Positions 13,501 to 49,500 of a stretch of DNA of 64,000 nucleotides are shown here, in pieces. The translations under genes were made by a program, and so were the position numbers. The stretch spans positions 63,550,001 through 63,614,000 of the forward strand of contig OX597814.1 of NCBI GenBank assembly GCA_951406725.2, in the 5' to 3' direction. Each line of letters begins with the position of its first letter. Position 1 is the stretch's first letter. Below the pieces are notes generated by a model that saw only the letters and a program-made list of their open reading frames with translations, was not told the DNA's origin and searched no databases. The stretch is from Octopus vulgaris (Eukaryota).

Positions 13501-16500
13501 TATTGCGTTTGAAATAAATATTTACATATGAATGTGTGTTTATACGTACTTTTGTTTACTCGTATGTAAGAGTTACTAGATTAGAATTTTGATCAAAATC
13601 ACACCTTCCAGCATATTTTGGGACGGATAGAACGGATCTCATATTTTATGATCCTGAGTGATCTTCGTTGTGTAAACTAGTGTATATCTTTTCTTGCAGG
13701 GCAAGGCATTATGTTGAGGCTCTTTTAGCAGATCCTTCTCAAAGGAAATAAAACTGGACAAGTTTTTGTCCAGTTCAAATAAAATGCACGCAATTATGTT
13801 AGTATTCATAAATAAATTTGTCTTACCTTTGTTATACCAATAAGGGCAATGTGTGTGCTGTACGAACTTGTTGCGTGTGAAGCACCCATAAGTCCAGCTA
13901 GTACACCCGCTAGACCTTCAGAAAACAGCCCACGGTTAATTGCATGTCTCGGAGGTGGGGGTACGGAGCATAGTATTGAGGCAGCGTAGTAATCACCCAT
14001 AGATTCAATAATTGAATTTATTGTCGACAGGAAAAATCCGAGAAAAATAGCTATTTGAAATTTAGGTGGTCCATACTGACCTGAAAAGTAAGTTCAAAAC
14101 AGAATAGAAGAAAATATTATCCCACTTAAGAAACCAATTTCTTACATAGACGTGAATGCTGTCATGAATGTTTTACGACAATAATTCTTGAATGCTACTC
14201 TATGTCATCGACACCGCAAGGATGAAAAGCAAAATTGAGGCCAGTTAGAATTGAACTGAGTAAAGAGTTGTAATTTATGTAAATCAGAACATTTTGTCCG
14301 ACTCCCTAATATTTTACAATCTTCCCACCTCTCTTAACTTCATTTTAAGATCTCAGTCATAAAATTGGAACTTTATACATGACAATATGACTTGTTATGA
14401 ATTAATTGCTAAGATCTAAATATAAACTTTATTAAACACTATTCTAGTACAGAATAATGTTGCAAGTGACTTGCCTCGAAAATATCGGTTGCCAGACATC
14501 CACGTTACCGTTTACACTATAATGCAGATATTGATAAGAGGTTTCAACCCAGTTTGTCTACGGATTCATGCACCTTTAAATTAATAGTGACTGTCCGTTA
14601 TTGGTATATAGTTAGAATGACTTTTGGTATTTCTTCAGTTGTCTGCATCTAAGTTCAACAGCCACGGAGTCCAAATTTTCCTTGACTTCGCTCAGGGTTG
14701 GTAAAGGAGATATTAGTCTTCTTTCTTTCTTTCTTTCTTAATCAACTACACTGCGCCCTTAGAAGTGTTGTTGGACACCACTCAGTCTGCATTTCCTCAG
14801 ATATGTAGGAGAATAGAGAGAGCGGCAGAAACCACTTTTCGCATAAAACCTAATATTCCACGACTATAGTTTATAGCAGAGGGACAGGCCGATGTACAAG
14901 GTATAACGGTAATGTAAAGGCGCTCTGTAATTAAGATAGTATCGCGGCTTTCTAACAGGCGATAACTGCGTAATCCGAGTACCGCTTGTTAGCATGTGAC
15001 ACATTTGTGTCTTGAGTCGGCATTTATAATTTTTAATACGAGAAAGAGATGATTTTGTACTTTCTAATGGATTGGACATTTCTCAATATTATAATTTAAT
15101 TGCTAAGATCTAAATACAAGTAGTAGATAACATAAGATCTAAAAATAAATAGTAGGTAACATATGGCAAGCTGGCTTAACATATATGACGGCCTATTCTA
15201 CATTCTGCGTGCTTATAGTTACTATTATGGTCATCTGATCGAAATTTGATCCTGATCAAACTATTTTTCTCTCTGGCTTTACATTATGATCAAAACTGCT
15301 TCATTAGTAATGTGTACCAAAGAAGAACAAAGAATAGTGACCTGGGAGATGGTAATGGTGAACCAGTTCACCATTATCATCTCTCGTGTCAGTTGAATCT
15401 TCTCGTCAGTAGTGGAGGTTGATTGGCGTCCTGCTGCCTCTTCGTGCCTCATGTTTGTCCATTTACTTATAAATCTTTCGATCTACTCATGCACGCTTCA
15501 ACATGGCAGTGTATTCTGCTAAAAGCCTCCGATGAATTTCAGAAAAAATGAATTGCTGCTCTTTTGTTGTCCTTTGGCGTACATTGCTAATGGAGCGGCC
15601 ATGCATATACTGTAAAGCCATATAGAAAAATGACGCGATCAGGCTCAAATTGTGATCACATGATCACAGTAGTAACAACTATAAGCACGCATGCGTAGAA
15701 GGTAGTATGACAATAATAAAGATATGTTATAGCGAAAGTGCAAATAATTTTTGACTTCCCCACGTATATACATATATATATTGGGTTTTCCGGAAAGTTC
15801 GTACCGATTTATAGTATCTTAAGTTTCGACATATTTTAGAACATGGTTGAGTCCATTAAATAGGATTTAACTACACCTCCATTTAGAGCACAGTTTAAGC
15901 TATCTTTTCATGGAAGAAGGTTTATGTTTCTATAACCTGTGTTAATTCTGTAACCCTTTAAAATGGAAGATGAGAAAGTTCATTTTCAGCATTTGATGCT
16001 TTTCTTTTTCCGTAAAGGCAAAAATCCCTTACAAGTAACCAAAGAAATATGCGCAGTTTACGGTGTTATTTCTTTATCCGAAAGAACTGTACGGAAGAGG
16101 TTCGCAAGATTCCGAGCTGGAGATTGCAGCATTATTGATAAAAACGATTAGGCTGACTATCCACTACAGATGATGACCAAATCAAGTCATTAATTGAGAA
16201 TAACCCGAGAATTGGCAGAAAGCCTAAACCTATCAAAATCCGTCGTTCATGAGCACCTGGTAAAGCTTGGGTACACAAATCGCTACGATGTTTGGGTACC
16301 ACATCGGTTGAGTGAGAAGAACCTTTTGGATCGCATTTCCATCTGTGACTGACTTTATAAACGGAATGAAAACGCGCCTTTTTTTAAAAGCAAATTGTGA
16401 CAGGTGATGAGAAAAGGATTTTCTACCAAAAGGTTCAGAGAAAGCAATCCTGGAGTAGCGACATGAGCCACCATTAGCCACCCCAAAAGCGGGTCTTCAT

Positions 16501-46500: not shown

Positions 46501-49500
46501 TGTTAACTTTATACTTTGTTATCTATTTTTGGCATATATATATATATATATATATATATACACATGTACACATATATGCATATGATGATTGCCTCATCTT
46601 CTCTGACGATGGTCGTCTCCCATTCAGCTTAGTTCTGATTTACATTCATCCTTATGTGTGAAGGCGCATAGCTCAGTGGTTAGAGCGTGGAGCCTACGAT
46701 CGTAAGGTTGTGAGTTCGAATCCCGGACCGGACTGCGTGTTGTGTTCTTGAGCAAGACACTTTATTTTACATTGCTCTAGCTCGCTCAGCTGTAGAAATG
46801 TGTTGCGATTTCACAGGAGGTCATGTGTATCGCCCTTTGCCTTTCCCTTGGATACACAGGTGGCGTGGAGAGAGGAGGCTGGTATGCATGGGCGATTACT
46901 GGTCCTCCATAAACAACCTTGCCCGGACTTGTGCCTGGACGGGTAACATTCTAGGTGCTATCTCATGGTCAGTCATGATCGAAGGGGATCTCAGTATATG
47001 TGCGCGAATAGTTACCACGCATCCATCGCCATAGTATTTAATAAAATACAAAACGGATCAAGATATGAATTGATAGGTGAGACATTTGTACGTCACTTGA
47101 TTTAAATGACAACAGCTTGCACATACTTTTGCCCACTACTCGGTTTCTATAGTAAATTCCTGTGAGAAACATTGCAAGATAACGGCACTGTTTTGATTGC
47201 AATTTTTATGTCACAGTATCTTTCTCCCAGAAAAGCTGCTCTCTCCACAACTTTGTCAAAATTAAGAAGATAATCTTCTGCTACTTGGAAATCTATTTAA
47301 CTCAAAGACAGCACTATCGTTCCGGGTCAGAAAGAGACTGGGAGTAATGGTAATTAAATGCCGACTCCTCGCTTCTTGCAGTTCAAGAACTCACGCACTG
47401 GAGCCTCACCATTAAACTGTATAAAATGCAGTTTAATGAATGTATGTACCTATATTTATATACACAGTCCCCCCCCACACACACATATACACAGGTACTA
47501 ACACGCAGGTGGATTCATAACTTCCCAAATCCAATTAGCATTAACATAAATCGGGTAAAAACTGTTAACATTTGAAGTCGTATGTCCCACCCTTTTCTGT
47601 CTGAATCCTACGACCATTTCCCCAGCATGGCTTTCACACAACCACATTTGGTAGCTACTACGGTAAGAGATTCCAGAATAGATTCTGTGCTACTTTTATG
47701 TCACTGGTCAATTGGACTTGCTATATCAAGAAAACTAAACAGGTTGACTATTAAGCTGTTTTATGATTAAGCCAATAAATATACTCTCATCATTTACTCA
47801 TGATGTTTTTCTAAAATATATAAACAATACACATTTATCTAAATATATCCAAAATAAAATGGCAAAAATATTCTCAAAATTATATATAAGAAACTGTAAC
47901 AGCCTCTAATATAAAAATTCTATGTATCATTTAATTGCTAAATCATAAAATGATTAAATTGCTGAATCACTGTTCACACTCACACACGCACGGACACACA
48001 CACACACACACACACACACACACACACACACACATGAGTGCGAATGTGACACGTAGAAATTTACCCGCTCTCACACTCATATACAAATATGCACATACAC
48101 AGACACGCAGATATATGTACGCACCAACCAGATCAGACAGCGACAAACTCTTAAGAGCTGTCTTGATTTAACAAAAGAAAAACCAACAACTCATACTTGC
48201 ATCCAGGCACGCAAACCTATATACGCATACTGCATACAGTTGGCATACCGATATACGTATGTACACACAAACGCATATACTCATATATATATATACACAC
48301 ACACACATACATTTATATGTAAGCATAAATATATGTGCTTATATGTGTGTGTGTGTGTGTACATGCTTACATACAAGTATTTGATATACATATATTTATA
48401 TGCATGCATTCAAATAAAGCAGAGAAACCACAAGAGTAGACTTACCGTGTACCAAGACTTGTTTGAGCAACTGTAGCAACTCCTGAGAGAATTACTGTTG
48501 TTGAGAAGAGTTGAGCTCTTAAAGGGTCTGTAACATCTACACACACAAGGTCAGCTAACACAGCTGCAAAGCCCATTGCTCCGGCCAGTAACGTAAGTAT
48601 GTTCTACAAAGAGAATTGTATAATTAAATCGTTTTTCAGAATGTTGGTGACAGAGCCATTGCAATAATCATATATTCCGAAAAAGAATTTCTGTTTCCAG
48701 AAGTTTTAGTCCTAAACTAGAGAGATTTTGAATCACAGAATCCGAAAAATGACATCTATTTATTAACGTCACGTCAAACTTTTTCGATACTGGATCCCTA
48801 AAATTACATTGTTTTAAATAAAGCTGCTTGAGGGCCAAGGCATAACATTCACAAAGAAATTGGGCTTTTTTCAAAACCAGACTGTTTGCTTAAAATTCTT
48901 CTAAAATCTAATAAAAGTTCTATGGAAAAATCATATCATTGTTTATACCTAATTTCTCATGAAATTGCATATCGGTGATTTTTTGAGGGCTGAATCTCAG
49001 GATAATCATGAGCCAAGTTCCAGCAATAGTCCGCCATCAGATGCAAGTCCCATACGCCAGGATGCCTTTGTTCCCTTGACGTTATATACTGATGGAAACA
49101 TTCTCCGGCTCGTTACCTGTGTGAGCAAGATTCCCGGGGAACTTTTCATGGTAACAACGTTGATAGTGCAGCTTTATTCTCTTATTTACTCGTAACTTTC
49201 GAATGTTTTCCAGCATGTTGTTGACTATTTTGTCATAGTTGCCAGCTTTCTTGTTATCCAGTCATATACAAGTATTCCAAATGCTGCTACTTCAATGCAA
49301 TTCACTGAATTTCCAAAGTTCCCAACATTCATCAAATTTCTGATTTGTAGCCCACAAGTAGTTCAGCTTTTATCTATTCACTATTCATGATGAGAAATAT
49401 GCAGTATATATTATGAAAGCATGGTCCATCTTTATCCAGACCTTTAACTAACTGCTTCATAATACCAAGTTTGATATGGGCTGGAGGTAGGATCACTTAT

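Follow-up and report, generated by a model that had tools for sequence, protein, structure and literature searches.

Here we present an analysis of an SLC23 transporter gene of Octopus vulgaris, located in a window of 64,000 nucleotides (assembly GCA_951406725.2, contig OX597814.1, positions 63,550,001 to 63,614,000 of the forward strand; "the window" denotes this whole stretch, and positions are counted from its first letter). The gene is an intact, duplicated, conserved and non-canonical member of its family and is spliced at the exon 1-2 junction. Its protein has Asn52 in transmembrane segment 1 (TM1), where the NAT family has His, and His392 in TM10, where the family has Asn. Both the TM1 His and the TM10 Asn rank among the best-conserved positions of the family, to which the vitamin C carriers of humans belong along with purine carriers of fungi and bacteria. 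We judge the chances to be about even that this divergent lophotrochozoan SLC23/NAT member keeps the same TM1-TM10 hydrogen bond with its partners exchanged; coincidence in a remodelled binding site is the main rival explanation.

Divergent paralogs with altered motifs are not surprising in themselves; the natural double substitution is a test case for NAT specialists. A lineage that keeps the two residues exchanged across the deep cephalopod divergence provides a natural test of their pairwise action, and the analysis also flags a mollusc-specific SLC23 branch with a pocket unlike that of any member of known substrate. No description of the combination of TM1 Gln-Asn (QN) with TM10 His was found in the literature searched, and a survey of animal SVCT evolution (PMC9233358) contains neither "signature" nor "Octopus" in its text.

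Results

The two residues and the exon 1-2 junction

TM1 reads L-A-V-Q51-N52-I-L-T, with Asn52 encoded by AAC at 48603-48601. The TM10 letters are AGC ACA CAC ATT GCC CTT ATT GGT ATA ACA AAG, followed by the donor gtaag, and the segment translates as S-Y-S-T-H392-I-A-L-I-G-I-T399-K, His392 being the CAC at 13853-13851. Using phmmer, the exon 8 peptide matched SVCT1 at 2e-22, and the alignment set His392 on the Asn of SVCT1 SSSPNIGVLGITK (S-S-S-P-N-I-G-V-L-G-I-T-K). In the family profile, the TM1 and TM10 columns align with Q85-H86 and Q408-N409 of the Aspergillus nidulans transporter UapA. Exon letters, translation and the SVCT1 alignment thus place both residues where the initial annotation, made from the letters alone, had put them. 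The codons for Asn52 and His392 (AAC and CAC) differ at the first base only. We take H31 and N325 of XanQ to be the counterpart of the UapA H86/N409 pair; reportedly, Asn and Gln are both tolerated at His31 of XanQ.

The acceptor of exon 2 reads tttgtag, followed by AAC ATA CTT. Because the triplet directly upstream of the Asn codon is an in-frame TAG, no alternative acceptor could extend the frame at exon 2. For the junction itself, contigs of four runs from four studies, presumed to be RNA, were aligned to 48300-53250. In all four runs the contigs join 52928 to 48603 and skip 4324 bases, with CT..AC on the forward strand corresponding to GT..AG on the gene strand; the junction-bearing contigs are 275, 2253, 1947 and 1586 nt long. 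Read depth across the intron (48604-52927) is nil except for two repeat-like patches, and no alternative letters at 48601-48603 are listed in the contigs of the four runs. The 2253-nt contig, from run X3, continues for 1974 nt past exon 2, a length that fits, by arithmetic only, 1489 nt of coding sequence (CDS) plus ~485 nt of untranslated region. Since the octopus genome has this exon 2 only at two tandem genes, an intron-less DNA copy is unlikely. We conclude that the Q|N junction is real, because intron-less contigs of every run carry it.

These observations leave next to no probability for a splicing or assembly artefact in which the true transcript restores Gln-His. We found no point in its favour, and the 52928/48603 joint in contigs of 4/4 runs, with no variant at the Asn codon and a stop codon directly upstream of it, rules it out. 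Furthermore, QN recurs in four octopod records (P0001 and P0005 of O. vulgaris, P0002 of O. bimaculoides and P0003 of Argonauta hians) and in three transcript-length proteins.

Gene structure and the tandem copy

The gene lies on the minus strand, with a CDS at 53080-4320 in 11 collinear exons, which were located by tblastn of O. bimaculoides P0002 against the window and refined to GT-AG sites. The CDS is open (1800 nt, encoding 599 aa), every intron is GT-AG, and the protein is identical to P0002 at 552 of 599 residues. The initial annotation had spanned 13827..48603, which is correct for the two residues and too short for the gene. Because the exons included in P0005 ("solute carrier family 23 member 1-like isoform X3") agree letter for letter with those of the window, the gene is an annotated O. 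vulgaris SLC23 paralog. Against the PF00860 Xan_ur_permease profile, P0002 scores 235.3 bits for a cutoff of 27, which makes it a NAT/NCS2/SLC23 member.

Coding exon 1 (52928..53080) encodes M1-Q51 and ends in TTG GCA GTA CAG, the last codon being the TM1 Gln codon CAG at 52930-52928, followed by the donor gtaagg. Exon 2 (48446..48603) supplies the remainder of TM1 and TM2 and has the Asn52 codon as its first. Exon 3 (45955..46052) encodes the TM3 loop, at which canonical relatives read QG[GA]TFxF, and exon 4 (38253..38341) an extracellular loop. Exons 5 (29838..30019), 6 (28281..28389) and 7 (21328..21484) lead to exon 8 (13827..14080), which contains both the TM8 motif and the TM10 signature. 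The CDS continues through exons 9 (8808..9078) and 10 (7068..7163) to exon 11 (4320..4552), where the stop codon is TAA at 4322-4320.

On the same strand, ~89 kb below the gene of the window, is a tandem duplicate (G000:C1:63467260-63505704, L008-L013). It is likewise intact, with 11 exons and GT-AG introns, and has QN in TM1 and S-T-H in TM10; P0001 of O. vulgaris is the protein that corresponds to it. The two copies differ at 26 of 599 aa, with 0.058 synonymous (dS) and 0.021 nonsynonymous (dN) substitutions per site and a dN/dS of 0.36. Contigs with the exon 1 letters of the tandem copy are also present in the examined runs. The records for the tandem pair are exon-skipped isoforms, which may be real splice forms or artefacts of the gene models: exons 3-5 and 7-8 are missing from P0005, and exons 3-5 from P0001, which has a read-through 3' end.

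Searching the octopus genome with exon 8 gave seven matches. The window gene and its tandem copy, 89 kb away, both read S-T-H; three others read T-Y-G-G-N, with D-S-I-[GA]-D in TM8, and two are canonical-looking and end before TM10. A search with exon 2 gave five matches, in which the tandem pair begin with Asn and the other three begin with CAA (Gln) after a ...cag acceptor; these three lie 14-34 kb from the three GGN exons, on the same contigs. The window gene (48603/52928), its tandem copy and the three distant paralogs, L018 (C22:25630729), L019 (C2:32548090) and L020 (C22:13846586), share a phase-0 intron placed just behind the TM1 Gln codon, the preceding Gln being inferred for the three paralogs. 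In these genes, an exon therefore always starts with the codon for the variable TM1 residue.

A second non-canonical lophotrochozoan class has TM1 Gln-Gln (QQ), TM10 [SG]-[GS]-N and, in part, G-S-H-x-F in the TM3 loop. Its members are the octopus loci L003 (C2:32582002), L004 (C22:25644408) and L005 (C22:13867771), together with P0004 (Lymnaea), P0016 (Liolophura), P0018 (Owenia), P0020, P0122 (Mercenaria) and P0144 (Mytilus). In the octopus and Lymnaea members, the TM8 motif begins with Asp instead of Glu (D-S-I-G-D).

Motif status and the binding pocket

Three motifs are the criterion for a canonical NAT in PMC5972032. There the TM1 Gln-His (QH) is called "nearly absolutely conserved", the exceptions given being QQ, TH and Q-Met/Ile; QN of the octopus is not among them. 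The window protein has Gln51-Asn52 at this motif, which is QH in 141 of 156 homologs. The TM8 motif is canonical (E-S-M-G-D, 14006-13992). The TM10 signature [Q/E/P]-N-x-G-x4-T-[R/K/G] departs at positions 1, 2 and 4 and retains the Thr and Lys; the initial annotation had recognized His for Asn here and missed two further departures, Thr in place of Q/E/P and Ala in place of Gly. In terms of the extended TM10 motif of SVCT1/2, S-S-S-P-N, to which "position 4" and "position 7" refer from here on, the octopus protein reads S-Y-S-T-H, with Ala at position 7.

In mouse SVCT1, the Na1 ion is bound by E341, D345, S390 and the carbonyl of S388 (PMC10011568), and the residues aligned with the first three in the octopus protein are Glu, Asp and Ser, from which a retained site would be predicted. 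The ascorbate site of the mouse protein is lined by P391, S389, T387, S117, F119, C62 and T66 (PMC10011568). Five of these are replaced in the octopus: P391 by Thr, S389 by Tyr, F119 by Ile, C62 by Leu and T66 by Ala. The initial annotation's "otherwise intact gene" thus holds for intactness, with 11 exons and an open CDS, and fails if read as otherwise canonical, the pocket being remodelled at other sites as well.

An AlphaFold2 model of the ortholog P0002, built from a 49-sequence alignment, has a mean predicted local distance difference test score (pLDDT) of 84.8 and a predicted template modelling score (pTM) of 0.84. Its TM1 helix spans 42-70 and a short helix spans 389-399, with block pLDDT of 73 for 381-390 and 86 for 391-400. 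In this model the protein is predicted to adopt the 14-TM, 7+7 inverted-repeat fold with core and gate domains. Foldseek matched it best to the human and mouse SVCT1 structures, 8jez and 7ytw (TM-scores of 0.91 and 0.90 on the target, 33-34% identity), then to UapA 5i6c (0.79) and UraA 5xls (0.76).

Comparison with known systems

The pairing of the two sites was described for UapA. In a homology model of 2012, N409, H86, Q85 and T416 form a hydrogen-bond network linking transmembrane segments 1 and 10, with H86-N409 and Q85-T416 paired in Table 1 (PMC3405029). Replacing any one of these residues gave cryosensitive transport, mostly with a lower maximal velocity and an unchanged Michaelis constant (PMC3405029), and UapA N409D binds substrate and does not transport it (PMC4837479). 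The homology of Asn52 and His392 to the H86/N409 pair, claimed in the initial annotation, is supported by phmmer, the family profile and the alignment of 156 proteins, and the polar pairing of H86 and N409 in one network by PMC3405029. UapA belongs to the same PF00860 family, and its Q-T pair is kept in the octopus as Q51 and T399, the retained partners of the network. It differs in having His/Asn instead of Asn/His and Gln instead of Thr at position 4, and identity in the structural alignment is 17%.

Mammalian SVCT1/SLC23A1 (7ytw, 8jez) is the closest structural match and shares with the octopus protein E-x-x-G-D in TM8 and the Ser that TM10 contributes to the Na1 site. The two differ in QH with S-S-S-P-N versus QN with S-Y-S-T-H, in TM3 (S-A-F versus P-S-I) and at Cys62/Thr66 versus Leu/Ala. 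Most of the nearest matches, at 35-38% identity, are animal nucleobase-type NATs resembling SVCT4/SNBT1 (S-Y-S-E/Q-N), which have the same S-Y-S start; unlike the octopus protein, they have QH, E/Q-N, Gly at position 7 and T-F-x-F in TM3. The vertebrate SVCT3 and fungal UapD-like groups are, as described in PMC5972032, divergent with motifs partly lost and substrates unassigned, as is the octopus branch. SVCT3 keeps the TM1 motif and has lost that of TM8 (PMC5972032), whereas the octopus protein keeps TM8 and is changed in TM1 and TM10. The QQ class resembles the window protein in its non-canonical position 4 (G/S) and in having His at the equivalent of SVCT1 N384; unlike it, the class keeps the TM10 Asn and has in part D-S-I-G-D in TM8.

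Distribution among homologs and phylogeny

From two word-index searches, each with 8000 word-sharing candidates scored, 156 database proteins, mostly animal, were aligned. The canonical combination of TM1 His with TM10 Asn was found in 140, and TM1 Gln with TM10 Asn in six, all of the QQ class. TM1 Asn occurs with TM10 His in six proteins, which belong to one clade, and with TM10 Asn in two, scallop P0015 and the fish paralog P0073. Mussel P0013 has TM1 His with TM10 Thr, and P0005, the exon-skipped isoform of the window gene, has TM1 Asn and no TM10. Thus TM10 His was found in 6 of the 155 homologs covering TM10, each time with TM1 Asn. The TM10 Asn is kept in 148 of the 155, including all six of the QQ class and both QN/Asn proteins. 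Every TM10 His has TM1 Asn, yet the refuting condition named in the initial annotation, that homologs carry the two changes independently, holds in part through the single changes in P0015, P0073 and P0013, from which it follows that each site can change alone.

Some records of the set have unusual annotations. P0156, a wallaby SLC23 (PF00860) protein, is named "CCR4-NOT transcription complex subunit 4 isoform X3", which probably stems from an error of naming or of gene fusion. Among P0009-P0012 and P0014 are bovid and pufferfish records of ~800-850 aa that resemble fused gene models.

The Asn/His proteins are P0001 of O. vulgaris, P0002 of O. bimaculoides, P0003 of A. hians and the transcript-length proteins P0006-P0008 (47-49% identical to the octopus protein). 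They form one clade with a support of 100 in the SH-like approximate likelihood ratio test (SH-aLRT), in a tree of 33 of 121 proteins in which every motif class was represented and redundant fish and mammal QH/EN rows were omitted. A profile search found no more members of the divergent clade among the 8000 candidates scored. Long-branch warnings apply to all placements in the SLC23 trees, where end branches reach 1.4-2.6 changes per column.

In a tree of 35 rows with a coral root, from which the mussel row was omitted for its long branch, the cephalopod clade is part of a larger one, starred in the tree, that comprises 13 lophotrochozoan proteins and also holds the QQ class; the trees thus uphold the divergent SLC23 subfamily suggested by the initial annotation. 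In these 13 proteins, position 4 is G/S/T/N and never Q/E/P, TM1 is QQ, QH or QN, the TM3 loop T-F-x-F is replaced by P-S-[IS]-S-[YF] or S-H-x-F, and the equivalent of SVCT1 Asn384 is His. With the mussel row removed, the scallop row adjoins the cephalopods (SH-aLRT 89), so that its placement is sensitive to long branches. As a sister or intermediate of the cephalopod clade the scallop QN/Asn protein is disfavoured (p = 0.033 in the approximately unbiased test), and its TM1 Asn probably arose independently.

Discussion

In the reading that we favour, Asn52 and His392 would touch, so that the core-domain helices keep both their polar link and the summed volume of the two side chains between them. 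The steps would have been permissive rather than corrective: the TM1 Asn would have come first, at no cost because the TM1 site accepts His, Gln or Asn in this branch, and would then have enabled the rare TM10 change from Asn to His, each step needing just one C/A exchange in the first base of the codon (CAC versus AAC). Glu and Asp of TM8 and Ser of TM10, Na+ ligands in SVCT1, are retained, and the protein is therefore predicted to be still a cation-coupled elevator transporter. It would carry neither ascorbate nor a canonical nucleobase, because substrate-contact residues are replaced (Thr at position 4, Ile in TM3, Leu and Ala in TM1). A more far-reaching version strikes us as doubtful; it would have an inverted, equivalent N52-H392 bond, amounting to a natural double-mutant cycle on the structural pair best conserved in the NAT family, in a cephalopod-specific lineage with a new non-nucleobase, non-ascorbate substrate, the His adding pH-sensitive control of the elevator.

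Several observations weigh against an exchanged bond. All six Asn/His proteins form one clade, so their co-occurrence is one evolutionary event, carries no statistical weight and cannot demonstrate coupling, and the survey behind it comprises 156 proteins, mostly animal. P0015 and P0073 combine a TM1 Asn with a TM10 Asn, P0013 combines a TM10 Thr with a TM1 His, and a tree constrained to group the scallop protein with the cephalopods is worse by 12.4 log-likelihood units. Additionally, the His-Asn contact is unstated in the solved-structure texts searched, so that the pairing rests on the 2012 homology model; the passages searched of two SVCT1 structure papers make no mention of the TM1 His and its TM10 partner. 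The compensatory swap proposed in the initial annotation is thus partly supported, by the homologous positions, their pairing in the UapA model and the retained Q51 and T399. It is weakened by the single-site variants, the single event, the remodelled pocket and a TM1 site that varies while the TM10 Asn stays.

The same observations enter into the main rival explanation, which we regard as a genuine possibility, though an improbable one: two independent substitutions that arose during remodelling of the binding site in a rapidly evolving subfamily, the canonical constraint having been lost after a change of substrate and the mirror-like appearance being coincidental. His and Asn are one nucleotide apart, and the surrounding clade varies at TM1 (Q/H/N), position 4 (G/S/T/N), position 7 (A/V/S) and the TM3 loops, with single changes in P0013, P0015 and P0073 and long end branches. 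The scallop, fish and mussel variants support this explanation as much as they do the permissive path. It has greater difficulty with the constancy of the TM10 Asn, kept in 148 of 155 sequences and replaced by His on an Asn background only, and with the fixation of both residues across proteins of just 47-49% identity. If instead the TM10 His were a gain of function, for instance a titratable group at the beginning of the TM10 half-helix that served in proton coupling, in gating by pH or in binding a new substrate, the TM1 Asn would simply make room for it. His392 adjoins position 4, a substrate contact in UapA (PMC3405029) and SVCT1 (PMC10011568), a TM8 His of UraA, H245, serves proton coupling (PMC5539350), and TM10 shifts between states in human SVCT1 (PMC11219872). 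The homologous Asn of UapA is, however, structural or kinetic and not substrate-binding (PMC3405029), and the retained Na+-site residues argue against a switch to proton coupling, so that we hold this explanation to be distinctly unlikely.

Pseudogenisation, like a splice artefact, is very unlikely. A decaying or non-transporting relic, in which the motif changes have no functional meaning, could account for the non-canonical state of three of the five specified signature positions and of the TM1 His, and for the exon-skipped isoforms among the records of both tandem genes (P0001, P0005). Little probability remains for it against an open 1800-nt CDS, 11 GT-AG exons in both tandem copies, the dN/dS between them, orthologs conserved to 47-49% identity with the TM8 E-x-x-G-D intact, spliced contigs in 4/4 runs and a confident fold prediction.

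Other features of the window

At the 5' end of the gene, an AG lies at 53095-53094, just 5' of the ATG, and contig pieces of all four runs cease to align at 53086; in run X6 the contig continues beyond this point with unlike letters. This suggests a non-coding spliced 5' exon farther upstream of 53086.

Introns 3 and 4 contain reverse-transcriptase open reading frames at 42172-44124 and 32251-33140 (both forward strand, antisense to the gene; Pfam RVT_1, 5e-28 and 4e-22), with related frames in the same introns at 41216-42244, 31008-32360 and 35384-37288. The RVT_1 frames look like copies of non-LTR (non-long terminal repeat) retrotransposons, and one copy is broken by long trinucleotide-repeat runs that translate as poly-N/D/G/S. 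The introns are also filled with very long AT-rich trinucleotide and microsatellite arrays, at ~25200-25420, 25900-26050, 26830-27170, 30490-30970, 33140-33950, 34270-34480, 35550-37100 and 37350-37650. The open frames within these arrays, present in all six frames and as long as 634 aa, are not genes.

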